This document shows positions 3,133 to 52,294 of a DNA stretch of 64,000 nucleotides, in pieces. Source of the DNA: an uncultured Gammaproteobacteria bacterium (GTDB taxonomy: Bacteria > Patescibacteriota > Patescibacteriia > Magasanikbacterales > UBA922); contig CAZFTR010000005.1 in NCBI GenBank assembly GCA_964522405.1, forward strand, positions 7,747-71,746, in the 5' to 3' direction. The first letter of the stretch is position 1; every line of letters begins with the position of its first letter. Under the pieces are notes generated by a model. The model was not told the origin of the DNA, made no database searches, and saw only the letters and a list, made by a program, of their open reading frames with translations. The position numbers and the translations under genes were made by a program.

Positions 3133-3203
3133 TGGGCGTGTCGGTTAATGGTAAACCACGGGTCTCCAAAACCCGAACTGGGAGTTCGATTCTCTCCACG
3201 CCT
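3133..3203 (+). tRNA. trnW: tRNA-Trp (anticodon CCA)
   Basis: Cloverleaf: acceptor gggcgtg/cacgcct, D arm ggtt-aatggta-aacc, anticodon arm cgggt-cTCCAaa-acccg, T arm gggag-ttcgatt-ctctc; CCA not encoded. Confidence 0.8.
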
Positions 3204-3207
3204 GCTA

Positions 3208-4548: not shown

Positions 4549-5907
4549 ATGCCTGTCAAAAAATATAAAAATGCCTATGTTGTTACAGTGGACATGGGTT
4601 ATGGTCATCAGCGCGCAGCTTATCCGCTCAAGGATATTGCCAGATGCATGACTAGCGGGAAGTGTGGAGAAGATTTTATTATAAATGCCAATACTTACAA
4701 GGGGATTCCGGCAGGTGATGCCGGCAAATGGAAGAGTAGTAGAAGTGTTTATGAATTTATCTCAAGACTAAAAAAATTACCCTTGATCGGTGATCCTATT
4801 TTTAATGCAATGGATTATTTTCAGAGAATTCAGCCTTTTTATCCTAAACGTGATTTATCAAAACCCAGTTTGCAGCTAAAATCTATTTATAAAATGATTA
4901 GAAAAGGTTGGGGAAAGCATTTGATAGATAAATTAAATCAAAATCCTTTGCCGATCATAACCTCTTTTTTCATACCAGCTTTTTTTGCAGATGAGCATGG
5001 TTATGAAGGGGATATTTATGCAATATGTACTGATACAGATGTGAGTCGTGCCTGGGCCCCACTTAACCCAAACAGAAGTAAAATCAATTACCTGGTTCCG
5101 AATAAAAGAGTTCGTGAAAGGTTAAAATTATATGGAGTTAGAAAAGAAAAAATCTTTGTAACCGGTTTTCCGTTACCAAAAGAAAATATTGGTAAAGATC
5201 TAAATATTCTAAAACAAAGTATTGGTTGTAGAATTGGAAATCTAGATCCCAAGCAAAGATATCAGAAAAAATATTCACATACTTTGGATTATTATCTTGG
5301 AGAAAGATACTGCAAGCTTAAAGCAAAACATCCCCTGACTATTACTTTTGCAGTTGGTGGCGCTGGAGCGCAAAGAGATATTGGGGTTACAATTTTGAAG
5401 AGTTTGCATAAATATATTGATAAAGGTGAAATAGCCCTAAATTTGGTGGCTGGTTCAAGATTGGATGTTTATCAATATTATAGAAAAGCGGTAAAAGAGC
5501 TTCATTTCAAAAAGCAACATGGTGGAAATGTGAAAATAATTTATGATGCTCATAAATTGAGATATTTTGGTCAGTTTAATAAAATTCTTCTGACCACTGA
5601 TATACTTTGGACCAAACCAAGTGAATTGTCTTTTTATGCAGGTTTGGGAATTCCTATAATTATGGCTCCGACAATTGGTTCACAAGAAGAATTCAATCGA
5701 TCTTGGTTACACTCTATAAACGCTGGTTTTGAACAAGAAGATCCAGCATATACACATGAATGGTTATTTGATTGGCTTGATTCTGGTTGGCTTGCAGAGG
5801 CTGCAATAGAGGGATTTCTTGATGCGCCTAGAAATGGGGTTTATCATATAGAAGATATTGTCTTACGAGGTGTGCGAAGTGAGATTGAGGATATGCATCT
5901 GCTTTAA
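4549..5907 (+). CDS. GT28-like glycosyltransferase (MGDG synthase/MurG-like fold)
   Basis: N-terminal VDMGYGHQRAA (GxGH motif) and C-terminal FAVGGAGAQ nucleotide-sugar-binding half. Confidence 0.45.
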   Translation: MPVKKYKNAYVVTVDMGYGHQRAAYPLKDIARCMTSGKCGEDFIINANTYKGIPAGDAGKWKSSRSVYEFISRLKKLPLIGDPIFNAMDYFQRIQPFYPKRDLSKPSLQLKSIYKMIRKGWGKHLIDKLNQNPLPIITSFFIPAFFADEHGYEGDIYAICTDTDVSRAWAPLNPNRSKINYLVPNKRVRERLKLYGVRKEKIFVTGFPLPKENIGKDLNILKQSIGCRIGNLDPKQRYQKKYSHTLDYYLGERYCKLKAKHPLTITFAVGGAGAQRDIGVTILKSLHKYIDKGEIALNLVAGSRLDVYQYYRKAVKELHFKKQHGGNVKIIYDAHKLRYFGQFNKILLTTDILWTKPSELSFYAGLGIPIIMAPTIGSQEEFNRSWLHSINAGFEQEDPAYTHEWLFDWLDSGWLAEAAIEGFLDAPRNGVYHIEDIVLRGVRSEIEDMHLL

Positions 5908-8663: not shown

Positions 8664-9851
8664 ATGAAAAAATACAAACGTTTAGAAAAAGATCAGCCCA
8701 TTGTTCATCATCATGGTATTTTTCGTCGCAAATTGAATCTATTCGGGGCTGTGGCACTTATGGTCAGTGGTACAATTGGTGCTGGTGTTCTAGGTATTCC
8801 TTATGCTGTGGCCAAGGTTGGTCTTGGTGTTGGGCTCTTATATATAATTGGTATAGGAATTTTAATGACAGGATTAAACTTGTTGCTCGGCGAAGTAGTT
8901 ATTAGAACCAAACAAAAATTTCAATTATCAGGTTTGGCAAATCGATATTTGGGCAAAGTTGGAGAGTGGGTTATGACTTTTATTGTTTATTCTGCTCTTT
9001 TTGGAATACTTGTAGTTTATATAATTGGTGAGGGTGAAACTCTTTCTACTCTATTCGGTTCAACTCCTCTAGTTTGGAGCCTGGTTTTTTTCTTTGTTGC
9101 TTCAATTATTATAATGCGAGGTATTCGCACTATCAAGACTGTTGAACTTTTTTTGACTTTGGGGATTTTGGCAATAATAGTTTTAATAGCAGTATTTAGT
9201 ACTCCACATATAAGTTTTGATCATCTCAGTTATTCAAATTTAGCTTATCTACTTTTTCCTTACGGTGTTGTCCTTTTTGCTTTTCATGGTACCACTGCTG
9301 TTCCTGAGGCTCATGCGGTTTTGGTCAACAAAAATGCTTTGTTTAAAAAATCACTGATAATTGCTGGAATAGTTACTACGCTTTCTTATTGTCTTTTTGC
9401 TATAGCAGTTGTGGGAGTTACTGGCGCTGAAACTACTGAGATTGCTACAATTGGTTTGGGAAATAAACTCGGCTCGATCATGTTTGTTCTTGGAAATGTT
9501 TTTGCTGCACTTGCAATGGGAACTAGTTTTATTATGGCAGGACTCGCTCTTCGAGATTCTTTTAATTGGGATTTTCATGTAAATAAAAGAGTTTCAAACC
9601 TGATAGTTCTAGGAGTTCCACTTATAATTTTCCTTTTTGGAATCCGTGAATTTATAAAGGCTATAGATTTTGTTGGGGGAGTGCTTGGAAGTTTAGAAAT
9701 GCTTTTGATTATTGCCATTTACTGGAGAGCAAAACAAACTGGAGATGTTTCTCCTGGTAAGTACAAACTTCATCATACGGTTTTATTGGTTGCACTTTTG
9801 ATTATTGCGCTTACGTTTGGAGCAGTCTATAGTATTATTAAGTTGTTTTAA
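8664..9851 (+). CDS. amino acid permease (APC/AAAP-type)
   Basis: MVSGTIGAGVLGIPYAVAKVG N-terminal signature; about 11 TM helices. Confidence 0.6.
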   Translation: MKKYKRLEKDQPIVHHHGIFRRKLNLFGAVALMVSGTIGAGVLGIPYAVAKVGLGVGLLYIIGIGILMTGLNLLLGEVVIRTKQKFQLSGLANRYLGKVGEWVMTFIVYSALFGILVVYIIGEGETLSTLFGSTPLVWSLVFFFVASIIIMRGIRTIKTVELFLTLGILAIIVLIAVFSTPHISFDHLSYSNLAYLLFPYGVVLFAFHGTTAVPEAHAVLVNKNALFKKSLIIAGIVTTLSYCLFAIAVVGVTGAETTEIATIGLGNKLGSIMFVLGNVFAALAMGTSFIMAGLALRDSFNWDFHVNKRVSNLIVLGVPLIIFLFGIREFIKAIDFVGGVLGSLEMLLIIAIYWRAKQTGDVSPGKYKLHHTVLLVALLIIALTFGAVYSIIKLF

Positions 9852-9856
9852 TTTAA

Positions 9857-9885
9857 TTGACATTGGGCTAGTATTTTGTTAATAT
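9857..9885 (+). promoter_or_regulatory. sigma70-type promoter of metK
   Basis: TTGACA - 17 nt - TAATAT. Confidence 0.55.
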
Positions 9886-9889
9886 CATT

Positions 9890-10058
9890 TTAGTTCATGA
9901 AATGGTGTTCTTTGTTGGTCGGTCGTATTTAGCTTTGTTACAAAGCTGGATTACTGCTCAAAAAAGTCCTTTTTCGGCAAAAGCCGAAATATCTATTTCA
10001 ATGAACTCGCCTACACGTCTTTTGGCGAGCAGGCAACGTAATTTTTAACGTTGTTTTT
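9890..10058 (+). promoter_or_regulatory. structured 5' leader of metK (possible SAM-responsive riboswitch; class not assignable by eye)
   Basis: About 170 nt with hairpins agctttg-tta-caaagct, tttcggc-aaaa-gccgaaa, ctcgcc...ggcgag and caacgt...acgttg; no SAM-I GGTGGAGGGA core seen. Confidence 0.3.
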
Positions 10059-11210
10059 ATGGAAAAAGTTTTGTTTACCTCTGAATCAGTAACAGAGGGA
10101 CATCCGGATAAAATCTGTGATCAGATCTCAGACGCAGTTTTGGATGCAGTTTTGAGTGATGATCCGGACGGAGCATGTTGTTGTGAAGTTTTTACTACAA
10201 CAGGCTTAGTTGTGGTTGGTGGAGAAATTACCACCAAAACCTATGTAGATATACCGGCCATAGTTCGAAGTACCTTAAAGGATATTGGCTACACAGACGC
10301 AGATTATGGAATAGACTATAAGAGTTGTGGAGTGGTTGTGGCAGTAGATGAACAAAGCCCTCATATTGCTCAGGGTGAAAAAACAGAGGAAGGAAAACAC
10401 AAAGCTCAGGGAGCAGGGGATCAGGGTATGATGTTTGGTTATGCTTGTAAAGAAACACCGGAGTTTATGCCACTGCCAATTATGCTGGCACATGGCCTTA
10501 CCAAGAAATTATCAGAAGTTAGAAAAGACGGAACTTTGGGCTATCTTCGACCTGATGGAAAAAGTCAGGTAACAGTTGAATATGTTGATGGAAAACCAAC
10601 TCGAGTAGACGCGGTAGTGCTTGCAGCACAGCATGATCCGGAAATAACACTTGAGCAGTTACGAGAAGATTTAAAACGAGAAGTAATAAACCCGGTTTGC
10701 GGAGAATATATTGATGAGAGTACCAAATATTTTATAAATGAAACTGGAACATTTATAATCGGAGGTCCACAAGGAGATACAGGAGTGACCGGAAGAAAAA
10801 TTATAGTAGATACTTATGGTGGAATGGGCCGACATGGTGGAGGAGCATTTTCCGGAAAAGTTCCAAACAAGCAAGATCGATCAGGAGCATATATGGCCAG
10901 ATATATTGCCAAAAATATTGTTGGCGCTGATCTGGCAGATCAATGCGAAGTTCAATTATCTTATGCAATTGGTTTTCCAGAGCCGGTAAGTGTACTTGTA
11001 GACACATTTGGAACTGGAAAAGCTGATACAGATAAATTAGTTGATGCGGTTAGGAAAATTTTTGATTTAACTCCGGCTGGAATAATTAACCAGCTAGATC
11101 TTAAGCGTCCAATTTACAAAGCAACAGCAGCTTACGGACACTTTGGAAGAGATGAATTTCCCTGGGAGAAATTAGATAAAGTAGAAGAATTGAAAACAGC
11201 ATTAGCTTAA
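10059..11210 (+). CDS. metK: S-adenosylmethionine synthetase
   Basis: GHPDK, GAGDQG and GGGAFSGK...DRSGAY motifs. Confidence 0.95.
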
Positions 11211-11226
11211 AAAACCAAAAAATAAA

Positions 11227-11257
11227 AAAATCTCGTTATTTATAGCGAGATTTTTTA
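11227..11257 (+). terminator. intrinsic terminator after metK
   Basis: aaaaatctcg-(loop)-cgagatttttt. Confidence 0.8.
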
Positions 11258-11301
11258 TAATTAAATTTTTATATTATTTTCAAAAATACGCAATCAACGC
11301 A

Positions 11302-11416
11302 TATTGATTTGTACTATAAAGACTCATGAGACATTCCGCAGGCACATTGTTACCGCGGAGCAAGGTAACAATAGAGCCGAGGACGGCGAAGGAGGATTTA
11401 TAGTACAAATCAATAC
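11302..11416 (+). ncRNA. Family C structured element, copy 1 (conserved core in a 19-bp perfect inverted repeat)
   Basis: tattgatttgtactataaa ... actcatgagacattccgcag ... gagccgaggacggcgaaggagga ... tttatagtacaaatcaata. Confidence 0.5.
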
Positions 11417-11568
11417 TTTCCTATTGACAATAATATTAAAATTTAATTATTAGGAAGTGAGTGCCCGGGCAGCCCTCACGTCATGCCTGGCCCATAACCG
11501 TAGCCACTGTTGATTCCTCCCGACAGGGCGGACAGTGCGTACACGGTTTTGACCTCAGCAGGTCTTCC

Positions 11569-11961
11569 TCAAGTGGGGGAAGGAGCGTCCAAGATGGACA
11601 CGGCCCGTGCGATCAGATCACTCGGGCGAAAGGGTTTAGCAACGAAACCTTGCACCGAACCACTCGCCAGCAGGCCTTGCAGCTCGCCAGTTTGTTCGCC
11701 GGTGAAGCCGGACACGAGCAGAAGAGGGGTGTTGTTGCCAGCTTGCCGAAGCGCGCTTGCCACCTCTGTCCCACCCATGCACGGCATGATCACGTCGCAG
11801 AAAATCAGGTCAAACTCACCATCGAGTGCCTTTGTCAGGCCGTCAGCGCCGTTGCCGGCACATTCGACCTCAGCCTCACCGAAGTGGCGAGACAGCGCCC
11901 TCACAGCGATCAACCTGATCATTTCCTCATCGTCAATCACTAGAAACCGCTTTCTTCCCAT
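11569..11961 (-). CDS. standalone CheY-like receiver domain protein encoded in a GC-rich island
   Basis: MGRKRFLVIDDEEMIRL...DLIFCDVIMP...LLLVSGF...VAKPF; GC-rich codon usage unlike neighbouring genes. Confidence 0.55.
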   Translation of the reverse strand: MGRKRFLVIDDEEMIRLIAVRALSRHFGEAEVECAGNGADGLTKALDGEFDLIFCDVIMPCMGGTEVASALRQAGNNTPLLLVSGFTGEQTGELQGLLASGSVQGFVAKPFRPSDLIARAVSILDAPSPT

Positions 11962-11998
11962 AACACCTCTCTTTTGGAGAGGGCTACCCGGACAGGCC

Positions 11999-12027
11999 AT
12001 ATTATATCATCTATGTTGTGCTGTCAA
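11999..12027 (-). promoter_or_regulatory. sigma70-type promoter for the GC-island receiver gene
   Basis: Minus-strand ttgaca-17 nt-taatat, about 35 nt upstream of the ATG, with a cctctc-caaaa-gagagg leader hairpin. Confidence 0.5.
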
Positions 12028-12082
12028 TAGTATGAGATTATTAAATATTGCTTTTTGGCTAAAATATGCTAAAATAATACCT

Positions 12083-12877
12083 ATGACCATAGTTCAAGCC
12101 CTTTTTTTGGGTATAATTCAAGGAATTACAGAATTCCTACCAATTTCATCATCTGGGCATTTGATTTTCCTGCCTAGTATTTTTGGTTGGGAAGATCAGG
12201 GTCTTGCTTTTGACGTGGTAGTTCATCTGGGTAGTTTGCTGGCAGTTATTGTTTTTTTTAGAAATAAACTTTGGAAAATTCTCAAAGGTTTTTTTGCTCA
12301 AGATGATCTACAAAATAGGAATTTAGGATTATTGCTAATCCTTTCAATTATTCCAGCAGGTATAATTGGATTATTTTTTGGAGATTTTATCGAGACAGGT
12401 TTTCGCTCAGCTACAGTAGTTGGTTTTGGTTTAATCTTTTGGGGAGTTCTACTTGGTTTGGCAGATAAGTATTCAAATAAATTGCAAAATCCTAAAAATC
12501 TTGAGAAAGCAAATTGGAAAAATGCCTTGTTCATTGGTTGTGCTCAAGCAATTGCGCTTATTCCCGGAACAAGCAGATCAGGAATTACTATGACAGCAGG
12601 TCTTTTTGCAAAATTTGATCGCAAATCTGCAGCAGAATTTAGTTTTCTGATGAGTGTACCGGTTATTGGTCTTGCGGGTGCTTTGAAGATTTTTGAATTG
12701 TTAAGTTTTGGATTGGGTCAGCTAAGTCTGGAGATTTTATCAGTTGGGTTTATTGCTTCAGCTCTTAGTGGCTTTATAGCAATTTCAGGGCTTATGAAAT
12801 TAATTCAACGTTGGAGTTTTATGCCTTTTGTTTATTATAGGGTGGTTGTTGGAATTTTGATTTTGTTCTTATTTTAA
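12083..12877 (+). CDS. uppP: undecaprenyl-diphosphatase
   Basis: MTIVQALFLGIIQGITEFLPISSSGHL N-terminus and PGxSRSG motif. ORF-track 11510-12877 is an artefactual read-through from the GC island. Confidence 0.85.
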   Translation: MTIVQALFLGIIQGITEFLPISSSGHLIFLPSIFGWEDQGLAFDVVVHLGSLLAVIVFFRNKLWKILKGFFAQDDLQNRNLGLLLILSIIPAGIIGLFFGDFIETGFRSATVVGFGLIFWGVLLGLADKYSNKLQNPKNLEKANWKNALFIGCAQAIALIPGTSRSGITMTAGLFAKFDRKSAAEFSFLMSVPVIGLAGALKIFELLSFGLGQLSLEILSVGFIASALSGFIAISGLMKLIQRWSFMPFVYYRVVVGILILFLF

Positions 12878-12880
12878 TAT

Positions 12881-14296
12881 ATGACAGAAAAACAGATAAT
12901 TAAGAAAATTTATACAGTTTCAAAGGAGCTTGACCAGGATATTTATATTGTTGGTGGTTTTGTGCGTGATGAATTATTGGGGATTAAGCACAAGAAAGAC
13001 TTGGATTTTGTAGTAGTCGGAAGTGGTCTTGAATTTGCCAAGAAATTTGATTTATCTCTAGAAGAAGAGGGGAGTCTGGTTGAGTTCCCAGATTTTGATA
13101 CAGCTCGTTATGTTTTAGATGATTTTGAAATAGAATTTGCAGGAGCTCGCATGGAATCGTATGATTCAGATTCCAGAAAACCGCATGTTAAGCCAGCTAC
13201 TCTTGAAATGGATTTATCAAGAAGAGATTTTACAGTTAATGCCATGGCAAGAAAAGTTATGTCATCTGGTTTGAGTAGTAAAATTCTTGATCCCTTTGAG
13301 GGCCAACAAGATTTAAAAAAGAAGATCATAAGAACGCCACTTGAGCCAAATGAAACATTTTCAGATGATCCACTACGTATGATGAGGGCAGCACGTTTTG
13401 CAGCGCAATTAGAATTTGAAATAGAAGAAAATACTTACAAAGCACTTGATAAAAATGCCAAAAGACTTAAAATAATTTCAGCAGAAAGAATTCAAGAAGA
13501 ATTATTTAAGATGCTTTCAACACTTGAGCCTTCAAAAGGTCTGTGGATTTTATATAAGACAGGATTGTTATCAGAATTTCTTCCGGAAGTGGTCGCACTT
13601 GGCGGTGTAGAAGAAGTTGCCGGTTATGCACATAAAAACAATTTATCCCACAGTTTCAAAGTTGTAGACAATATTGCCCAGATGAGTGATAAGTCAATTT
13701 TGCGTTTTGCCGGTTTGATGCATGATATTGGCAAGGCTGATACAAAGAAATTTGTAAAAGGGCGGGGCTGGACTTTTGATATGCATGATCATCTGGGAAA
13801 GAAAATGGTTAGGCAGATTGGCCGTCGATTGCGCATGAGTAAGGGTGATATAGAATATGTAGCTCACTTGGTTCGCTGGCATCTCTATCCGATTGCTCTT
13901 ATGGATGAGGGGGTAACTGATAGTCCTGTTCGCAGATTAATTGTAAATCTTCAGGAAGATTTGGATGATCTTCTGATTCTTTGTCGAGCAGATATTACCA
14001 CTGGAAATCAGAAGAAACTTAAGAGGAGATTAAAAAATTATGATTATCTGGAAAAAAGAATTGTAGAGGTTTTGGAAAAGGATAAGTTGCGAGCATTTCA
14101 GTCGCCGGTTCGCGGAGAGGAAATTATGAAGGAGTGCGGTTTAGGTCCAGGTCCAACAGTTGGAAAAATAAAAATAGCAATCGAAGAAGCTATTCTTGAT
14201 GGAATTATTGCCAATGAATATGAGCCGGCATTAGAATATTTTAAGAAAATAAAAGATGAATATATGAAAGATGTGCAGGATTGGGAAAAAGTTTAA
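12881..14296 (+). CDS. cca: CCA-adding tRNA nucleotidyltransferase (PolyA_pol head + HD domain)
   Basis: GGFVRDELLG...DLDF nucleotidyltransferase motif, RDFTVNAMA, HD-domain HDIGK. Confidence 0.8.
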   Translation: MTEKQIIKKIYTVSKELDQDIYIVGGFVRDELLGIKHKKDLDFVVVGSGLEFAKKFDLSLEEEGSLVEFPDFDTARYVLDDFEIEFAGARMESYDSDSRKPHVKPATLEMDLSRRDFTVNAMARKVMSSGLSSKILDPFEGQQDLKKKIIRTPLEPNETFSDDPLRMMRAARFAAQLEFEIEENTYKALDKNAKRLKIISAERIQEELFKMLSTLEPSKGLWILYKTGLLSEFLPEVVALGGVEEVAGYAHKNNLSHSFKVVDNIAQMSDKSILRFAGLMHDIGKADTKKFVKGRGWTFDMHDHLGKKMVRQIGRRLRMSKGDIEYVAHLVRWHLYPIALMDEGVTDSPVRRLIVNLQEDLDDLLILCRADITTGNQKKLKRRLKNYDYLEKRIVEVLEKDKLRAFQSPVRGEEIMKECGLGPGPTVGKIKIAIEEAILDGIIANEYEPALEYFKKIKDEYMKDVQDWEKV

Positions 14297-14315
14297 TTCT
14301 AAAATATAAATAAAA

Positions 14316-14345
14316 GCCAGCCCACACAAGGGCTGGTTTGATTTT
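14316..14345 (+). terminator. intrinsic terminator after cca
   Basis: gccagccc-acacaa-gggctggt then ttgatttt. Confidence 0.75.
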
Positions 14346-14349
14346 GAAG

Positions 14350-14770
14350 GGAGGGGTCGGCGCGGCAAGTTGGTCCTGAATTGCCCCTTTTATACGGGTG
14401 GTTGATGATACAACCGCGCCTTCCCCATAAATAGCCTTAGCTTGCGCCTTGGCCAAAGAACAGATGGATCGGGAACCTGGATTTGAACCAGGGACTTCAG
14501 GATTTGGAGTCCTGCACTCTACCGCTGAGTTATTCCCGAAAAAGAGAGGGCTGGGCTTGGGTCTGTCGCCAAGGCATATAGACCACAATCGGACTGGGAC
14601 GCCAGATCCAAGCTTGCCCCCATAAAAGGACAGAAACGCCATCTAGTCCACCGTGGACTAGGGGGGTGACAGCGAGTCTGTGCTGATCCGTGCTGGGCAC
14701 GGGCCCTGATGCGGGGATTTGCACCCCAATGCGCGACGAGTGCCGCGGTTTACTTTGCCTGATTTTGCGG
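14350..14770 (-). other. GC-rich structured island surrounding a tRNA-like gene
   Basis: By eye >55% GC. Perfect hairpins ctagtcca-cgg-tggactag and gggg-tgcaaat-cccc; long-range pair ggggaaggcgcgg/ccgcgccgacccc; no convincing ORF. Confidence 0.4.
14465..14539 (-). tRNA. tRNA-Trp-like (anticodon CCA), GC-rich, CCA encoded; a second and very different Trp tRNA
   Basis: Minus strand: TCGGGAA-TA-ACTC-AGCGGTA-GAGT-G-CAGGA-cTCCAaa-TCCTG-AAGTC-CCTGG-TTCAAAT-CCAGG-TTCCCGA-T-CCA. Confidence 0.6.
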
Positions 14771-15074
14771 AGTCAAATTGAGGCTTAAGCTTACAATTTT
14801 CTTGGCAACAGCATCAGGGAAGCCACTCATGGCGGCTATGTTTGTGGATGAGAAGTGCTCAACACTTGTGGCGGATTATGAATACCGCTTACCAACCCGA
14901 CAAGTGGGGCACAAGTTTACTCCCGTGAACGGGCAGACTTTCTTCACTCCTCACATTGATATCGAAAGCAATAAGAATATTATACAAAAGAGTTCTTTTT
15001 GTCAATTATAGAAGTGAATAAACAAATTGCTATTTTCAATTAAAATTGCTATAATGGCATCATAAATTTTCTAT

Positions 15075-15803
15075 ATGTTTCTAGTGGAATTTTGGAATAA
15101 TTTTTTATATCGTCCATTATTTAATTTCCTAATTTGGATGTACAATAATTGGACTCATGGAAACTTGGGTTGGGCAGTTGTTTATTTAACTGTCTTTTTG
15201 CGTTTAGCACTTCTCCCTTTTACAGTTTTGGCAGAGCGAGCAAAAGTTAAAAATGAAATATATTTTACAAAAGTTAAGCAGATGATCAAGGAGTACAAAA
15301 AAGATCCGGTTTTGCTCAAACAAGAAGTGCGTAAATATCTGAAAAAGAAAAAAGTACGTCCATGGTCAAGAGTATTTGAAATCGGAGTTCAGTTAGTGGT
15401 ATTGTTACTTTTGTATCAGGTATTTTTGCGGGGAATTACAGGTGAGAGAGTAAAGATTTTACGTCTACTCTACGATTTTGTGAATTACCCGGGAGATATC
15501 AATACCATGTTCTATAGTTTTGATCTTGGAGCTATACATGATTCTATTTGGGCCGGATTTGTAGCTGTTTTCATGCTTTTTTATATTTTTCTTGAATTCA
15601 AAGAAAATAAGGTACTGCTTACCAAAAGAGATTTGGCTTATTTTACACTTTTTCCATTGTCAGTTTTTCTATTATTGTGGATATTACCAATGGTAAAATC
15701 TTTGTTTATATTGACTTCCATGATCATGTCAGTAGTTTTTCACTATGTGATTAAGCTATTTATAAGAAAGCCCAAGCTGCATGAAAAAGCAAAATCAACT
15801 TGA
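15075..15803 (+). CDS. yidC: membrane protein insertase YidC (short form)
   Basis: LYRPLFNFLIW...GNLGWAVVYLTVFLRLALLPFTV conserved YidC TM1 region; five TM helices. Confidence 0.6.
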   Translation: MFLVEFWNNFLYRPLFNFLIWMYNNWTHGNLGWAVVYLTVFLRLALLPFTVLAERAKVKNEIYFTKVKQMIKEYKKDPVLLKQEVRKYLKKKKVRPWSRVFEIGVQLVVLLLLYQVFLRGITGERVKILRLLYDFVNYPGDINTMFYSFDLGAIHDSIWAGFVAVFMLFYIFLEFKENKVLLTKRDLAYFTLFPLSVFLLLWILPMVKSLFILTSMIMSVVFHYVIKLFIRKPKLHEKAKST

Positions 15804-15908
15804 TATTAAAAGGTTTTAGTAGTAATATAGATACATCAATAAGGATCTGTAGCCAAATTTCATCCTAAAAGCATATTTGGCACAGCACCATTAAATAAAC
15901 CATCAAAT

Positions 15909-16520
15909 ATGGCTGAAGAATCAATTGATAAATTAATGTATTCCTTTGTCATGGAAGACGTACTCAAGGGCATTTTTATTTATGTGCCACCCGGGTATGT
16001 TGCCTGTGTCTATGATCTCGGCAGGGGAGTTTTAAAAAAAGTTCTTACACCGGGATTGCATTTTAAGATTCCATTTTGGCAAAAAGCAAAATTGTTCAAT
16101 ACTCAAACTTTAGAATACAGTATCAGTAGAGAATTTAATCCTGAGAACGAAAAAGCCATGGGAGACGTGCCAATTGCAGCAGTTACTATGGATTCTAAGC
16201 GTATAGCAGTAGAGGGAACAGTTCTCTTGAGATTAGATATTCACCAAATCCCACATATTTGGCAGACAATAGGTGAAGATTTTGTAGTGAAGATTATCCG
16301 ACCGACTATCCGCAGCCGTATTCGTATGGTAGCAAGTAGATTTGATCACAATGACATGATCGGAGCAAAGAGAGATTCAGTAGAAACAGAGCTCAAGAGC
16401 GAACTTGAGAGAATATTTTATCCGCGTGGAATATATGTAGAAAATATTCTTCTGAGTGAAGTTTCCACAGTATCAGAACAGCCCAAGAAAAAGAAAAAGA
16501 AAAAAGAAGACGAAGAATAA
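15909..16520 (+). CDS. SPFH/band-7 (prohibitin/slipin-like) protein with poly-Lys/Glu tail
   Basis: Band-7 core with PIAAVTMDSKRIAVEGTVLLRLD; C-terminal KKKKKKKEDEE. Confidence 0.5.
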   Translation: MAEESIDKLMYSFVMEDVLKGIFIYVPPGYVACVYDLGRGVLKKVLTPGLHFKIPFWQKAKLFNTQTLEYSISREFNPENEKAMGDVPIAAVTMDSKRIAVEGTVLLRLDIHQIPHIWQTIGEDFVVKIIRPTIRSRIRMVASRFDHNDMIGAKRDSVETELKSELERIFYPRGIYVENILLSEVSTVSEQPKKKKKKKEDEE

Positions 16521-16602
16521 ATAACAAATCTAAATTCAGCTCTGACACATGTCGGAGCTTTTTATTTAGCCGCAAAACTTGTTGACAATAAATTTTGAAT
16601 TA

Positions 16603-16780
16603 AATAGATATTAGCTTAAATTTAGCACATATATGGTTTGTGGATTAAAAACTCATGAGACAATCCGCAGCCCCCTTGCTGATGCTGAAAGCAGATCAGC
16701 AAGAGAGGCGAGGACGGCGAAGGAGGATTTAATCCACAAACCAATGTAGAATAGAAAAAATTTAAGCTAATATCTATTTG
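16603..16780 (+). ncRNA. Family C structured element, copy 2, nested in a 22-bp outer and 16-bp inner inverted repeat
   Basis: Outer aaatagatattagcttaaattt / aaatttaagctaatatctattt; inner tggtttgtggattaaa / tttaatccacaaacca; core actcatgagacaatccgcagccccc...gagaggcgaggacggcgaaggagga. Confidence 0.5.
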
Positions 16781-37254: not shown

Positions 37255-37289
37255 AAAACAAAAAACCGCTTTTTGCGGATCGTATAATT

Positions 37290-37880
37290 TGGGGTAGGGT
37301 ACGGCCAGCGCGCTACCCGAGTCCGTTGCCTCTCTCTAGGCTCCGGTTTGGACTCGGGCAGCGCGCGGCCGCTAGTTGAAGCTCCAGAAGGAGCGGTGGG
37401 ATGCGCTATGGCACCGTGTTTACTTCGTGACAGTTCTTCGCACAAAGTCGACACAGGTTGCCGCAGACGCGACACTGGGTGGGGATCGTCGCGACCCCCT
37501 CTGGATCTCCAGGCCATTCGATTCGGCCTGGGAGCAGCGCGCTTAACCGGACTTCTCCCGGAATGATGGGCGCGACTGCTGTCTCATCACAGTCTTAAAG
37601 AGCAACACGAACCGTTGGCTTTGCAAGAGTCCTCAGTTCTTGCAATAACCTCACCTGGGCTAATCAGCCCGCACTTCCACCGCCTCGCGGTGGTTCTGGC
37701 AACCCACTTTGGGGTAGGCAACGCATGACGTCCACCGGGATTGCTGATCGTATTCGTTCACGACCTGCGGGTCAAAATTCCGGGTGGCGACCGTTGCTTC
37801 GAGGTTTTGAATATAGCATAAAAAAAGCCTTTTGTCAACCCTGTCGCTCGCGAACGACAGGGTCAAGGCCCTAAGATTGA
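37290..37880. other. about 600-bp GC-rich, highly structured, ORF-poor island (candidate structured ncRNA or foreign DNA)
   Basis: Starts ggggtagggtacggcc; 20-bp imperfect hairpin ggccagcgcgctacccgagtcc / ggactcgggcagcgcgcggcc; gctcc-agaa-ggagc; ccctgtcg-ctcgcgaa-cgacaggg; minus-strand terminator-like ccgcaaaaagcggtttttgttttt at 37262-37285. Confidence 0.35.
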
Positions 37881-37941
37881 AATATAGAAAAATGAGAAAT
37901 ATCAAAATTTAGCTAAACTAAGCAAATTTTTGAAAATAAAA

Positions 37942-37972
37942 ATCCAGCTCTTGTTAAAAGCTGGATTTTGGT
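37942..37972. terminator. hairpin with flanking A and T runs (bidirectional terminator-like)
   Basis: aaaatccagct-cttgttaaa-agctggatttt. Confidence 0.5.
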
Positions 37973-37974
37973 TT

Positions 37975-38110
37975 TAAGTGAAGTGTGCACGCCGGGATCA
38001 TGGATCCCGGCGTGCCCCCAGAGGCGGGGGTCTGGACAAGTGCCCGACCCACCAGTGCGGAGCAAGGGAGTTTGACCCAAAACGCATCTAAACTTTCACC
38101 GCAAATCGCG
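37975..38110. other. second short GC-rich structured segment upstream of uvrB
   Basis: 13-bp perfect hairpin gcacgccgggatc-atg-gatcccggcgtgc; ccccc-agagg-cggggg. Confidence 0.3.
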
Positions 38111-38222
38111 GTTCCAGAGTAGAAGAAGAGGATCCTAAATAATATATCATTTTTTTGCTGTATTTACAATATTTTGCTAGTATTAAGTGGTGATATAAGT
38201 TTTTCTAAATTAGCAAAAATTT

Positions 38223-40286
38223 CTGAAATTTAAACTTAAGTCAAAATACAAACCAGCAGGAGATCAGCCTCAGGCAATTGAATCTCTGGTTTTGGGTATG
38301 CAAAAATCAGCAGAGAGACAAACCTTGCTTGGAGTCACTGGTTCTGGAAAAACTTTTACTGTTGCAAATGTGATTGAGAAGGTTCAAATGCCAACTTTGG
38401 TAATTGCTCATAATAAAACTCTGGCAGCCCAGCTTTGTAATGAATTTCGTGAATTTTTTCCAGGTAACGCAGTTGAATATTTTGTAAGTTATTATGATTA
38501 CTATCAGCCAGAGGCATATATGTCTGGCAGTGATACCTATATAGAAAAAGAAGCTCAGGTAAACGATGAAATAGATAGACTTCGTCATGCTTGCACCCAA
38601 GCGCTTATGACTCGAGATGATGTGATCATAGTAGCTTCAGTTTCAGCAATTTATGGTCTTGGTTCACCAAAAGAATATGAAAAAATTGTTTTGCATCTTG
38701 AAGTTGGACAGAAAATTGAGAGAAGAGAGATGATGAAACACCTTATTGAAATGCAATTCAACAGAACAAGCACAGATTTGAAACGAGGGATGTTTAGAAT
38801 GCGTGGTCAGGTTTTTGAAATCATGCCGGTAAATGAAGATAGAGTTTATCGGTTTGAGATAAGCGATACTATTGAATCAATAGAGGTTTTAGATCCGATC
38901 ACCAGAAAATCAACTTCAAAAAGACAAATTAGAGATGCTTGGATTTTTCCTGCTAAGCATTATGTGATTGGAGAAGAGTCAAAAGGGGTTGCCATACAGA
39001 GCATAAAAAAAGAACTAGAAGAGCAATTGAACTTTTTTAAGAAAAAAGGAAAAGTTTTGGAATATGAAAGACTTAAACAGAGAGTTAGATATGATTTGGA
39101 GATGATTGAAAATATTGGATATTGCAATGGAATTGAAAATTATTCAGCTCATTTTGAAGCTAGGAAATCCGGAGAGCCTCCATTTACACTTCTTGATTAT
39201 TTCAAAGAAACTTCGAAAAGGGTTGGTGGTTTTCTAACTGTTATAGATGAGTCTCATGTAACAACTTCTCAAATTCGTGGCATGTACAATGGAGACAGGG
39301 CTCGCAAAAATTCACTTGTAGAACATGGTTTTAGGCTTCCCAGCGCGAGAGATAATAGACCTCTTAAATTTGAAGAATTTGATGATCGAGTAGAATCTCT
39401 TGTCTATGTTTCTGCAACTCCGGCTGACTATGAATTGCAAGACAGCTCTCAAGTAGTTGAGCAGATTGTCCGACCTACCGGTTTGGTTGACCCTGAGGTG
39501 ATAATCTCACAAATTACACCGACAAAGGATAATCCCAAGAGTCAAGTCGATGATGTGATAGAGAGGATAGGACAAGTTATAAAAAAAGGTGAGCGCGCTC
39601 TTGTAACTACTCTGACCAAGAGGATGGCAGAAGATCTGAGTGAATATCTTGAAAAGCAAGATATAAAAGTTAAATACCTGCATAGTGATATTAAAACTTT
39701 GGAGAGAATTGAAGTGATAATGGCTCTGCGAAAAGGAGAGATAGATGTTATAGTGGGGGTAAATCTTCTTCGTGAGGGTCTGGATATTCCGGAAGTTTCT
39801 TTTGTTGCCATTCTTGACGCAGATAAAGAAGGATTTCTACGAAGTGAAACAAGCTTAGTGCAGACCATTGGTCGCGCAGCCAGAAATGTAAATGGGCAAG
39901 TTGTTCTCTATGCAGACCAAATAACAGGTTCAATTGAGCGAGCAATCAAGGAAACAGACAGGAGAAGAAAAATTCAAATTGAATACAATGAAAAACATGG
40001 TATAACTCCAAAAACAATTGAGAAAAATATTCGAAATATTCTCGAAGAGTTTGGAATAAGTGGAAGCAAAGTTGATAAGCAGGTAAGAGGAAGGAAAAAA
40101 ACAAAGTCACTTAGAGAAATTCTTGAACTTGATACTATTGGAGATGATAGACCGGTAAGTGATATTTTAAAAGATAAAGAACAGAAAATGAAAAAAGCAG
40201 CAAAAGACTTGGAATTTGAATTTGCAGCAGTACTTCGGGATGAAATTCGTCAATTAAAAAAATCCCAAAAAGGGATTAAGAAATAA
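38223..40286 (+). CDS. uvrB: excinuclease ABC subunit B (start codon uncertain)
   Basis: Frame open from 38214 encodes the conserved UvrB N-terminus FKLKSKYKPAGDQPQAIESLV upstream of the ORF-track start. No in-frame ATG/GTG/TTG there; CTG at 38223 proposed. Body contains GVTGSGKT, DESH and the helicase C-terminus. Confidence 0.8.
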   Translation: MKFKLKSKYKPAGDQPQAIESLVLGMQKSAERQTLLGVTGSGKTFTVANVIEKVQMPTLVIAHNKTLAAQLCNEFREFFPGNAVEYFVSYYDYYQPEAYMSGSDTYIEKEAQVNDEIDRLRHACTQALMTRDDVIIVASVSAIYGLGSPKEYEKIVLHLEVGQKIERREMMKHLIEMQFNRTSTDLKRGMFRMRGQVFEIMPVNEDRVYRFEISDTIESIEVLDPITRKSTSKRQIRDAWIFPAKHYVIGEESKGVAIQSIKKELEEQLNFFKKKGKVLEYERLKQRVRYDLEMIENIGYCNGIENYSAHFEARKSGEPPFTLLDYFKETSKRVGGFLTVIDESHVTTSQIRGMYNGDRARKNSLVEHGFRLPSARDNRPLKFEEFDDRVESLVYVSATPADYELQDSSQVVEQIVRPTGLVDPEVIISQITPTKDNPKSQVDDVIERIGQVIKKGERALVTTLTKRMAEDLSEYLEKQDIKVKYLHSDIKTLERIEVIMALRKGEIDVIVGVNLLREGLDIPEVSFVAILDADKEGFLRSETSLVQTIGRAARNVNGQVVLYADQITGSIERAIKETDRRRKIQIEYNEKHGITPKTIEKNIRNILEEFGISGSKVDKQVRGRKKTKSLREILELDTIGDDRPVSDILKDKEQKMKKAAKDLEFEFAAVLRDEIRQLKKSQKGIKK

Positions 40287-40348
40287 ATTGATGGTGCCGA
40301 CGGCCCGCGTTCGAAAACGCGGACCGACGACGGGGGTTGTGGGGATGC

Positions 40349-40471
40349 TCAGACGAGCAGGGTCAGGGGCCAGAGGCTCCAGAGCGTGCTCACGAACGTG
40401 ATCTGGTTCTGGGTCCTTGCGGACGGCTCGGGCAGGGGGATCTGGGGCATGTGCCCCTTCTCGAACGTCAT
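40349..40471 (-). CDS. GC-rich small ORF (40 aa, hydrophobic W-rich C-terminus) with strong SD
   Basis: ggaaggagagagtcgag-ATG; MTFEKGHMPQIPLPEPSARTQNQITFVSTLWSLWPLTLLV; GC-rich third positions; followed by ccgcgtt-cgaa-aacgcgg hairpin. Confidence 0.3.
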   Translation of the reverse strand: MTFEKGHMPQIPLPEPSARTQNQITFVSTLWSLWPLTLLV

Positions 40472-40626
40472 CTCGACTCTCTCCTTCCGCGGTTGATTCC
40501 ACGAAATTCTAAATCGACTGATCAATTCAGTATTTCATGGAATCAAACTTTGAAGATTTGGAGTATTAAACCCACAACCGAATTATTCTACACTATGCAG
40601 TCAGTTTTGTCAAGATAAAACAAAAT

Positions 40627-41226: not shown

Positions 41227-41370
41227 AAAATACCTTAACAATAAAATTGACACATATTTATATTTTTGCCATAGTTATCAATGCTGTATCTGTGAGGGCT
41301 GCGTTGTGGCCCTGCAAACGCGAATACTTGTCCCGCGGTGGGGCTTGTGGATACCCTTGGGGGGTATATT

Positions 41371-41634
41371 ATGACAGCTCAAGAGATGAGAGACTTCGCT
41401 GCTTCGCGCGGCATTTACTTCACCAAGCCTGGTGAGAGTGCTGCCCCGCTCGAGGAGCAAAGAGAGCTCGAGGTTCGCTGGCTCGAAGACACGGACGCCG
41501 ATCCGATCGGTACGGTGGCGGCGGGTTCCTCGATGTTCATGTTCGACGAGCTGGTCTGGAAGGTCGACCAGCTTCTCGGTCAGCTGCAGGCTGGCAAGTC
41601 GGTCGGACAGCCTCGGGTCATGCGCGCGGGCTGA
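41371..41634 (+). CDS. GC-rich small acidic protein (87 aa) of unknown function
   Basis: gggggg tatatt ATG; MTAQEMRDFAASRGIYFTKPGESAAPLEEQRELEVRWLEDTDADPIGTV...; much higher GC than neighbours. Confidence 0.35.
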   Translation: MTAQEMRDFAASRGIYFTKPGESAAPLEEQRELEVRWLEDTDADPIGTVAAGSSMFMFDELVWKVDQLLGQLQAGKSVGQPRVMRAG

Positions 41635-41730
41635 TTCGCGGTTCGCATCGCAGAGCAGGTGGGGGTTCGGCATTGTCGGACCCCATCGCTTCCTTTGTTT
41701 ATTTCTAGTATATAGAGGAGGCGAAATTAA

Positions 41731-51968: not shown

Positions 51969-51976
51969 ACATATAT

Positions 51977-52013
51977 AAAAACCTATTCTTTAATTGCAAG
52001 AATAGGTTTTTTT
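51977..52013. terminator. bidirectional intrinsic terminator
   Basis: aaaacctattct-ttaattgcaag-aataggttttttt. Confidence 0.8.
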
Positions 52014-52087
52014 GCGGCCTGTCCGAGCGTGTGGAGCGCGGGCAGGCCTTGGGTCCCTCAGATGTGGATCCATGGTATCCTCCTTGG

Positions 52088-52198
52088 TTAGAACCGGTTG
52101 GGCTCGCCCTTGTTGGTCAGTAAGACCACCACGCAGAGGCCGGTGACGACCACGATCAGGCAGCCCGCGAAAGCAAATTGAGTTGCTTTTTTGAACAT
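52088..52198 (-). CDS. GC-rich small hydrophobic peptide (36 aa), possibly leaderless
   Basis: MFKKATQFAFAGCLIVVVTGLCVVVLLTNKGEPNRF; minus-strand ttgaca-17 nt-tagcat ends 6 nt before the ATG; an aaggagga SD and a 27-aa ORF follow. Confidence 0.3.
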   Translation of the reverse strand: MFKKATQFAFAGCLIVVVTGLCVVVLLTNKGEPNRF

Positions 52199-52294
52199 AG
52201 CTTTATGCTAGTTGATTTGCCTTTGTTTGTCAATCATGATGTCAGTATGATATTCTTTAGTAAAAAGGAGTTTGATTTTTATGTGAAGTAAGTT

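Follow-up and report, generated by a model that had tools for sequence, protein, structure and literature searches.

The cca-yidC spacer and its minus-strand unit

The 64-kilobase (kb) stretch of DNA analysed here (hereafter the window) belongs, as judged by the proteins encoded on either side of the locus of interest, to a member of the Candidatus Magasanikbacteria, within the candidate phyla radiation (CPR, or Patescibacteria). Between cca, the gene for the CCA-adding enzyme, and yidC lies a spacer of 779 nucleotides (nt), and this spacer is filled by a stretch rich in guanine and cytosine (GC) that contains, on the minus strand, a transfer RNA (tRNA) gene with the anticodon CCA. The surroundings are otherwise unremarkable. 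Specifically, the 54 proteins predicted in the window and scanned with Pfam form an ordinary housekeeping set (metK, uppP, dnaK/dnaJ/grpE/hrcA, uvrABC, lepA, murJ, dnaB, recR and clpB among their genes) with no phage, plasmid, integrase or aminoacyl-tRNA synthetase genes, and the closest non-self match of the CCA-adding enzyme is 74% identical.

An earlier note on this DNA had estimated by eye that some 420 base pairs (bp), at 14350-14770, exceed 55% GC. The measured value of 56.5% agrees with that estimate and is set against a window mean of 36.1% (standard deviation 4.9% over 421-nt windows); an equally high GC content is reached by only 0.8% of them. The extent was underestimated, as the GC-rich stretch truly spans ~14299-14972, and together with its expression signals the island occupies ~14307-15005 as one minus-strand unit between cca and yidC. 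The description of the island as full of perfect hairpins was likewise overstated, since only two perfect 9-bp inverted repeats are present, and the remaining repeats are imperfect. One is a palindrome (14643-14651/14653-14661; inverted repeat I8) within the hairpin segment 14620-14703, and the other pairs over a long range (14704-14712/14811-14819).

The sharp jump in base composition at both boundaries is what an assembly chimera or contamination would produce, an explanation that the earlier note had entertained and that we consider extremely improbable. An independent Logan assembly contig from run SRR8146440, on which no gene was called at the island, is 100% identical to the window over positions 9881-16705 (6.8 kb) and spans both junctions, which makes a chimera produced by a single assembler very unlikely. 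The insertion also returns precisely to the syntenic gene order, and equivalent units are found in relatives from other samples.

Read from 5′ to 3′ on the minus strand, the unit consists of a leader, a 116-nt tRNA-like element (M1), GC-rich hairpins, the tRNA, a long terminal hairpin and a terminator (Table 1). Its borders, at ~14970 and 14307 and thus about 660 nt apart, are taken from the promoter and terminator matches obtained in consensus scans, and transcription is predicted to start near 14970. The promoter-like site suggests that the unit possesses its own consensus-like sigma-70 promoter, apparently a strong one, and the terminator can serve the convergent cca as well, the stop codon of which is at 14296. 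The ~660 nt between promoter and terminator contain stops in all six frames and no open reading frame (ORF) with a Pfam match. Protein coding was rejected on this basis, the 77-residue (plus strand) and 133-residue (minus strand) ORFs of the island included.

The element closest to the promoter, M1, is closed by a perfect 9-bp acceptor-like stem (14819-14811 with 14712-14704), which is directly adjoined by a T-arm-like hairpin, UGGGG-UGCAAAU-CCCCG (14728-14712). This arrangement has the geometry of a tRNA acceptor/T arm, built around an expanded multi-branch core with 98 nt between the two strands of the stem. Both the closing stem and the T hairpin appear in the unconstrained minimum free energy (MFE) fold, and none of 200 shuffled sequences was as stable (z -2.70). 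The T-arm motif itself occurs only three times on the two strands of the 64-kb window, namely in M1 and in two tRNAs, and 10 of the 5000 dinucleotide-shuffled versions of the flank produced the combination of a T arm with adjacent 7/7 acceptor pairing. A sub-threshold match to the Tymovirus tRNA-like element (11.4 bits, E 8.3) also falls on the T arm of M1 and is the sole such match in the 5′ flank. M1 contains no canonical anticodon arm and no recognisable 7-nt anticodon loop. It is tRNA-like and not a tRNA.

Of the three readings offered in the earlier note, the one in which the tRNA is a module of a larger structured RNA lies nearest to what was observed: the gene is one module of the ~660-nt unit with its second tRNA-like element, but no sign of one large fold was seen and no Rfam family accounts for the unit. 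Very little weight is given to a single structured RNA with an embedded tRNA, as in GOLLD or ROOL, and to a divergent RNase P RNA or transfer-messenger RNA (tmRNA) beside the tRNA. The GC-rich region is long enough to suggest such an RNA (~620 nt), and long-range complementary segments (I3 and I5) do enclose the tRNA; in I3, 14562-14575 can alternatively pair with 14446-14459 at 12 of 14 positions. Nonetheless, the first 150 nt of the unit show no excess structure, nothing beyond tRNA-like motifs is common to the relatives, and Rfam reports no family except tRNA, whether at gathering score in the whole window or at E ≤ 10 in 13800-15400 and in smaller sub-windows (14540-14975, and the leader at 14820-14970, which gave no match). 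The comparison of the flanks with Rfam leaves the tRNA identity in place and assigns the flanks to no family. For RNase P RNA in particular, a P4-like segment was noted by eye at 14950-14770 on the minus strand ('GAAGAAAGUCUGCCC … AAGCUUAAGCC'), and this reading was abandoned because searches of 1.6 kb and 436 nt yielded no Rfam match at E ≤ 10 and because the segment has no excess structure (fold z -0.2). A tmRNA was rejected in the absence of an ARAGORN call in the window and of an Rfam RF00023 match at E ≤ 10 around the island. Signal recognition particle RNA, 6S RNA, GOLLD, ROOL and Y RNA gave no Rfam match, and for Y RNA (YrlA) there was also no TROVE-domain (Ro60) protein among those scanned.

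The tRNA gene and its origin

ARAGORN identifies the gene at 14465-14539(-) as tRNA-Trp(CCA), 75 nt long counting the encoded CCA, and the Rfam tRNA model (RF00005) scores it at 69.2 bits (gathering score 29) over model positions 1-71, which bears out the cloverleaf with encoded CCA drawn in the earlier note. The stems are of standard size (7-bp acceptor, 4-bp D, 5-bp anticodon stem with a 7-nt loop, and 5-bp T stem), and the aligned sequence displays the canonical core of U8, A14, G18G19, G26, U33, A37 and G53-C61 with the T loop UUCAAAU, in keeping with the conserved purine at position 37 and the T-loop consensus UUCRANY. The D loop reads AGCGGUA, the anticodon loop CUCCAAA and the T arm CCUGG-UUCAAAU-CCAGG, and the fold is more stable than shuffles (z -2.9). 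With anticodon CCA and an intact structure, this tRNA gene is genuine.

The label 'Trp', on the other hand, depends on the anticodon only. Bacterial tryptophanyl-tRNA synthetase (TrpRS) depends on G73 together with the anticodon, A73 being used by archaea and eukaryotes, and U73 is characteristic of bacterial tRNA-Cys and tRNA-Gly. The acceptor end of the gene at 14465-14539 is atypical, with U1-A72, the discriminator U73 and an encoded CCA. It therefore carries the anticodon expected of bacterial tRNA-Trp and lacks the other two of the three sequence determinants that can be tested, having U73 in place of G73 and U1-A72 in place of A1-U72 (or G1-U72/C72). The metagenomic comparison set comprised 86 distinct tRNA-Trp genes that match this one in anticodon arm and T loop; G73 is present in 83 of them, A73 in three and U73 in none, and a single gene has A72. 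Because U73 and U1-A72 depart from bacterial tRNA-Trp identity, this tRNA may be poorly charged by TrpRS, or may not be charged with Trp at all.

The window contains one other tRNA-Trp(CCA) gene by ARAGORN, at 3134-3205(+), which scores 61.3 bits with Rfam tRNA, has G73 and lacks an encoded CCA. The two genes share only 47% identity, in line with the earlier remark that they are very different. The gene in the spacer has 52% GC, compared with 57% in the native copy, and because it is not the GC-richer of the two, its composition offers no evidence for a foreign origin. A transporter gene of the Trp/Tyr-permease family is located 4.6 kb from the extra tRNA(CCA), at 8664-9851, and similar permeases occur near metK or cca in relatives L146, L149 and L153; this proximity is probably coincidence.

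With respect to origin, a phage- or plasmid-derived or otherwise horizontally acquired tRNA with an integration remnant had been proposed in the earlier note. The remnant found no direct support: the 54 window proteins scanned include no integrase, phage or plasmid domains, no att (attachment-site) duplication of the 3′ part of the tRNA is present, and the island flanks contain no convincing att-like direct repeats, only weak AT-rich ones. A phage or plasmid source was rejected in that BLAST returned generic tRNA matches only, at 75-80% identity. Pattern scans of viral contigs were similarly dismissed, two being empty and the third giving a single 19-mer match (L150) that lacks a tRNA or common context and is attributed to chance. 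No donor emerged from the metagenomes either, in which an exact 40-base pattern from the tRNA had no match and a relaxed pattern retrieved 120 tRNA-Trp loci, none of them close (at most ~82% over ~50-54 nt) and none sharing the flanks. The foreign ancestry itself may still be real, given that nothing sampled resembles the tRNA. The scanned window proteins also include no likely partner (TrpRS paralogue, Fem/MprF-type transferase, Ro60, RtcB, anticodon nuclease or integrase).

These observations bear on the simplest alternative, in which the gene is a plain redundant tRNA-Trp that was acquired horizontally, with non-functional flanks, from a GC-rich donor. The low identity to the native tRNA-Trp, the encoded CCA (unlike most native tRNA genes of the clade), the contrast between 56.5% GC in the island and 36% in the window and the absence of the island from several close relatives would all follow from such an event. 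We nonetheless regard it as unlikely, as no close match to the tRNA or to its flanks emerged from collections of metagenomes, viruses, phages or plasmids, and the flanks themselves do not look like a piece taken at random from a gene-dense genome, being filled with stops in six frames and holding a second tRNA-like module as well as a promoter and a terminator of their own. Moreover, relatives contain different tRNA-like arrays at exactly this spot, as described below.

The more general proposal that GC-rich islands in this genome represent recent foreign DNA was rejected on the strength of a neighbouring GC-rich response-regulator gene, which is syntenic in relatives and for which no donor was identified. 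This stand-alone receiver gene, at 11569-12000(-) in the region 11455-12000, has 58% GC and a third-position GC content of 0.62 (0.28 in cca), lies on the strand opposite to its neighbours and is at best 36-39% identical to any of 5.8 billion proteins. A response regulator is likewise located between metK and uppP in L141 and L143 and upstream of uppP in L147. The versions in relatives are also GC-rich and highly divergent, with 32% identity for a tblastn match in L001.

Arrays at the same site in related genomes

The gene order cca-[gap]-yidC-band7-hrcA-grpE is conserved in relatives, and what varies is the content of the gap. In L003, L004 and L014 it holds an acyltransferase-like membrane ORF. 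In L141, L143 and L146 (CCA-adding enzymes 74%, 72% and 70% identical to that of the window, respectively), GC-rich gaps of 640-760 nt with 50-54% GC interrupt otherwise AT-rich genomes and carry tRNA-like genes on the minus strand (Table 1). A GC-rich non-coding island of a different kind, with a core of ~59% GC, occupies the spacer in L001 (5434-5632) and L147 (3856-4292); it has no tRNA-like module, and a TTGACA promoter-like element is visible by eye on its minus strand.

The modules of L141, L143 and L146 retain the acceptor, D and T arms of tRNA while departing from it in the anticodon region. In most of them the anticodon loop is aberrant, with 6, 12, 13 or 32 nt, and only two of the 11 modules over the four genomes look decodable (Trp in the window and Thr in L143). 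Even so, G18G19 and the UUCRANY T loop are retained in all 10 modules that were aligned (a set that leaves aside M1 and the long L141 module). The modules are whole and include both acceptor strands; they are not 3′ fragments. Most encode N73-CC, in a clade whose native tRNA genes mostly lack CCA. Similar modules are scarce elsewhere: in 734 kb of unrelated tRNA-bearing contigs, a search for T arms with acceptor pairing found five that ARAGORN had not called versus 198 that it had, compared with four uncalled modules in ~2.8 kb of arrays. The long module of L141 matches the tmRNA model end to end (positions 1-374) at a score below the gathering threshold of 47; its 3′ end reads …CCUCCACC, and it has no room for a tag reading frame. 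By this match it is a 'mini' tmRNA-like tRNA domain.

Expression signals are shared as well. At the yidC end, L143 and L146 each have a perfect TTGACA followed by a 17-nt spacer, and a TTGACA can be seen by eye in L141; in all three, a terminator is present at the cca end, preceded by one or more GC-rich hairpins noted by eye. Beyond these signals the arrays have little in common. The four share no 8- or 9-mers except in the T loops and the yidC-end promoter, and candidate conserved motifs outside the tRNA-like parts were sought among them and not found.

Table 1. Features of the cca-yidC spacer in the window and modules of the corresponding arrays in relatives
Feature	Position	Strand	Basis or remarks
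cca (CCA-adding enzyme; PolyA_pol and HD domains)	12881-14296	+	Pfam
Intrinsic terminator, stem CCAGCCC…GGGCTGG (14336-14317) then U run	14307-14336	-	Terminator scan; inverted repeat I7
3′ trailer: small hairpin, then long GC-rich hairpin with arms 14426-14414/14365-14353	14345-14464	-	z -2.30; inverted repeat I4
tRNA	14465-14539	-	ARAGORN, Rfam tRNA; anticodon CCA at 14506-14504 (position 33 of ARAGORN call)
Imperfect long hairpin and U-rich tRNA 5′ leader (…CUCUCUUUUU, U at -1)	14540-14632	-	Fold z -1.30
Two GC-rich hairpins	14620-14703	-	Fold z -3.37; 1/200 shuffles as stable
M1, 116-nt tRNA-like element	14704-14819	-	Inverted repeat I9, T-arm motif scan, MFE fold
5′ leader	14820-14970	-	49% GC; fold z -0.22, no excess structure
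Promoter-like site	TTGACA 15005-15000, 17-nt spacer, TAATAT 14982-14977	-	Consensus scan, 10/12 matches
yidC	15075-15803	+	Gene bordering island on other side
L143 array, 98-nt module		-	25-nt insert in anticodon loop
L143 array, canonical tRNA-Thr(CGU)		-	Rfam tRNA, 74 bits
L143 array, 77-nt module		-	13-nt loop; 56.9 bits
L143 array, 73-nt module		-	G33; 40 bits
L146 array, 6-nt-loop module		-	49.6 bits
L146 array, 100-nt module		-	
L146 array, irregular-anticodon-stem module		-	51 bits
L141 array, 79-nt module		-	G3:U70, 12-nt loop; 49.5 bits
L141 array, 132-136-nt module	4794-4929	-	G3:U70; tmRNA model match, 40.5 bits, E 5e-13

Two further explanations can be weighed against the content of the relatives' arrays. 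The first is a graveyard, that is, decaying copies of tRNA and tmRNA genes left by repeated integration and excision of mobile elements that target such genes, or by degeneration of an acquired cluster, with no present function. Mobile elements classically integrate at tRNA and tmRNA genes, and the defective anticodon loops of most modules, the tmRNA-like tRNA domain without a coding part and the patchy distribution all fit. We consider a graveyard distinctly unlikely, however, given the lack of integrase or mobile-element genes among the 54 window proteins scanned and of att-like direct repeats, and given modules that keep both acceptor strands and, where aligned, their D-loop GG and T-loop motifs. 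Promoter and terminator have furthermore been retained where the flanking enzyme is only 70-74% identical, and the arrays hold ~50-54% GC in AT-rich genomes. Taken together, the preserved expression signals, the preserved D/T tertiary motifs and the high GC content argue against pure decay in streamlined AT-rich genomes.

The second is a precursor punctuated by tRNAs, in which function lies with the GC-rich hairpins between and after the tRNA-like modules, as small RNAs, and the tRNA-like elements do no more than mark cleavage sites for RNase P and RNase Z. Punctuation by tRNAs is an established principle of RNA processing, and GC-rich hairpins precede the terminator, by eye, in each array. 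Those in the window are indeed more stable than shuffled sequences (z -3.4 for 14620-14703 and -2.3 for the trailer), if only moderately so over the range of sub-elements (z -2.3 to -3.4). The hairpin sequences are nonetheless unshared between relatives, no targets were identified, and whatever the island shares with other parts of the window is at chance level; this explanation is accordingly quite improbable.

Several other GC-rich or structured segments were observed in the window. Between the gene for a beta-CASP RNase and uvrB, a GC-rich (56%) non-coding island of ~530 nt lies at 37275-37838(-). Its predicted promoter, TTGACA-17-TATATT with TG (37838-37810), is an 11/12 match. The predicted structure is very strong, with an MFE of -235 kcal/mol where shuffles give -190.7±6.5 kcal/mol (z -6.8, or -4.7 for the plus strand). 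With no Rfam match (gathering score or E ≤ 5) and no T-arm motif, this island is a candidate large structured RNA outside Rfam families. Shorter GC-rich intergenic islands with 51-56% GC are located at 37939-38137, 40256-40526, 41285-41700 and 51976-52213 and show neither an Rfam match nor a tRNA-like motif. A GC-rich 98-residue ORF with a GTG start and an in-frame ATG ten codons in is found at 41338-41634(+), and 52090-52200(-) could encode a hydrophobic peptide of 36 residues (MFKKATQFAFAGCLIVVVTGLCVVVLLTNKGEPNRF). Finally, a perfect 16-bp inverted repeat (11305-11320/11397-11412) just downstream of the metK terminator surrounds a 76-nt GC-richer segment with an inner hairpin and has no Rfam match at E ≤ 10.

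Interpretation and comparison with known systems

Overall, the reading that we favour, and that we hold to be probable rather than secure, is that the unit is a compact, lineage-specific accessory operon for stable RNAs, composed of a tRNA and tRNA mimics, which is inserted between cca and yidC and belongs to a patchily distributed class. As judged by their sequences, the property that recurs in the loci of the relatives is tRNA shape and no particular anticodon. Because shape is what they share, the supply of tRNA mimics is likelier to be the role of the locus than routine extra decoding of Trp codons. The sequences directly show the gene, the anatomy of the unit, its lack of a match among known families and its positional counterparts in relatives, from which we infer its transcription, processing, charging and biological role. 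A primary transcript would be made from the predicted strong promoter and would be cut by RNase P and 3′-end nucleases at every tRNA-like module, and stable L-shaped RNAs would be released, one of which, in this genome, would be a complete tRNA. Such RNAs could act as decoys for, or back-ups against, tRNA-targeting nucleases, or as aminoacyl carriers recognised through the acceptor stem. Phage tRNAs with altered anticodon loops provide an analogy for a role as mimics. Another is offered by accessory tRNA arrays for which an anti-defence function has been proposed (PMC12803027).

A number of points weigh against this accessory-operon reading. M1 was called neither by ARAGORN nor by the Rfam tRNA model, has no canonical D arm and carries G in place of U55, and the whole unit folds only modestly better than its shuffles, with z -2.6 for the minus and -3.7 for the plus strand. 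The arrays found number only four, and they are unalignable between relatives. In addition, L002, L015, L148 and L153 are equally close relatives that lack the locus altogether and have cca-yidC spacers of 42-86 nt. This makes the locus dispensable and potentially neutral passenger DNA, and neutral readings stay alive on account of this patchy distribution. The proposed role as decoy or carrier, for its part, is speculation drawn from the anatomy of the unit.

A more specific version of the accessory-operon reading, which we put forward as a tentative and rather doubtful possibility, is that a subclade of the Magasanikbacteria keeps a strongly transcribed, hypervariable tRNA-mimic locus. Its RNAs would keep the acceptor/T/D 'top half' and the elbow of tRNA while their anticodon loops are scrambled. 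They might be arms-race decoys for, or resistant back-ups against, tRNA-targeting toxins of hosts, competitors or phages, or else anticodon-independent aminoacyl carriers, and the tRNA of the window would possibly be an orthogonal or mis-charged tRNA that reads UGG.

The CPR bacteria are symbionts with tiny genomes whose RNA biology is barely explored. If the locus does produce stable RNAs, it would represent a new bacterial use of the tRNA fold, dispensable and yet equipped with a promoter, and would bear on how such cells cope with tRNA-targeting nucleases and on anticodon-independent roles of tRNA-like RNAs. The tRNA described here, with a Trp anticodon and a non-Trp discriminator, is a candidate natural orthogonal or mis-charging tRNA in its own right. 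Should the locus prove to be neutral debris, the finding would be an ordinary one, and GC-rich islands in AT-rich CPR genomes would still serve to flag unannotated RNA loci. No description of CPR tRNA-like arrays was found in the literature, the coverage of which was incomplete, and this constitutes weak evidence of novelty.

In terms of known systems, the unit most plainly resembles bacterial tRNA operons and accessory tRNA genes in its order of promoter, tRNA gene and terminator, in a canonical cloverleaf over the Rfam threshold and in a U-rich 5′ leader with U at -1 that suits RNase P. It differs from them in having a single decodable tRNA alongside M1 (116 nt) and some 400 nt of structured spacer, in an acceptor end (U1-A72, U73) that is atypical for Trp, and in that relatives hold mostly non-decodable tRNA-like genes at the equivalent spot.

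A comparison with non-canonical tRNAs is also instructive. Allo-tRNAs, which Mukai et al. are said to have described in 2017, reportedly have 8/4 or 9/3 acceptor/T stems (a 12-bp branch). M1 was rejected as an allo-tRNA under this definition, its acceptor branch being 9+4 or 8+5 (13 bp) and no anticodon arm being recognisable. Mistranslating tRNA families represent a second group of non-canonical bacterial tRNAs (PMC10404621). The unit is like both groups in that identity elements and anticodon are not in their standard pairing and in that M1 combines a long closing stem with a short T stem, and it is unlike them in that no dedicated synthetase gene is nearby and that the expanded or shrunken anticodon loops of the relatives are not features of those families. 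The known tRNA mimics include the tRNA-like domain of tmRNA and bacterial Y RNAs such as YrlA (PMC4201824). As in these, the acceptor/T arm and elbow are kept and the anticodon region is replaced, and the L141 module matches the tmRNA model, but the window gives no match to a tmRNA or Y RNA model and there is no tag reading frame.

The arrays also call to mind tRNA array units, which are known in Firmicutes, Acidithiobacillus and Mycobacterium and in their plasmids and phages (PMC4758250, PMC5966550, PMC12803027). Those of mycobacteria have been proposed as a putative anti-defence system (PMC12803027). Defined as at least 20 tRNA genes at a density of at least two per kb (PMC4758250), the category was rejected for the present unit, which has one tRNA and one tRNA-like module in ~0.66 kb, the relatives having 2-4 modules. 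The two kinds of locus are alike in comprising accessory, clustered and patchily distributed tRNA genes, the array units being proposed as horizontally mobile, and they differ in that the loci described here hold 1-4 modules in ~0.6 kb, most of them non-canonical, and are chromosomal and fixed between housekeeping genes with no mobile-element genes nearby. The unit sets itself apart from accessory tRNA clusters and from non-canonical tRNA or tRNA-mimic genes by its small size, its fixed chromosomal site, its mostly non-decodable modules and its CPR host.

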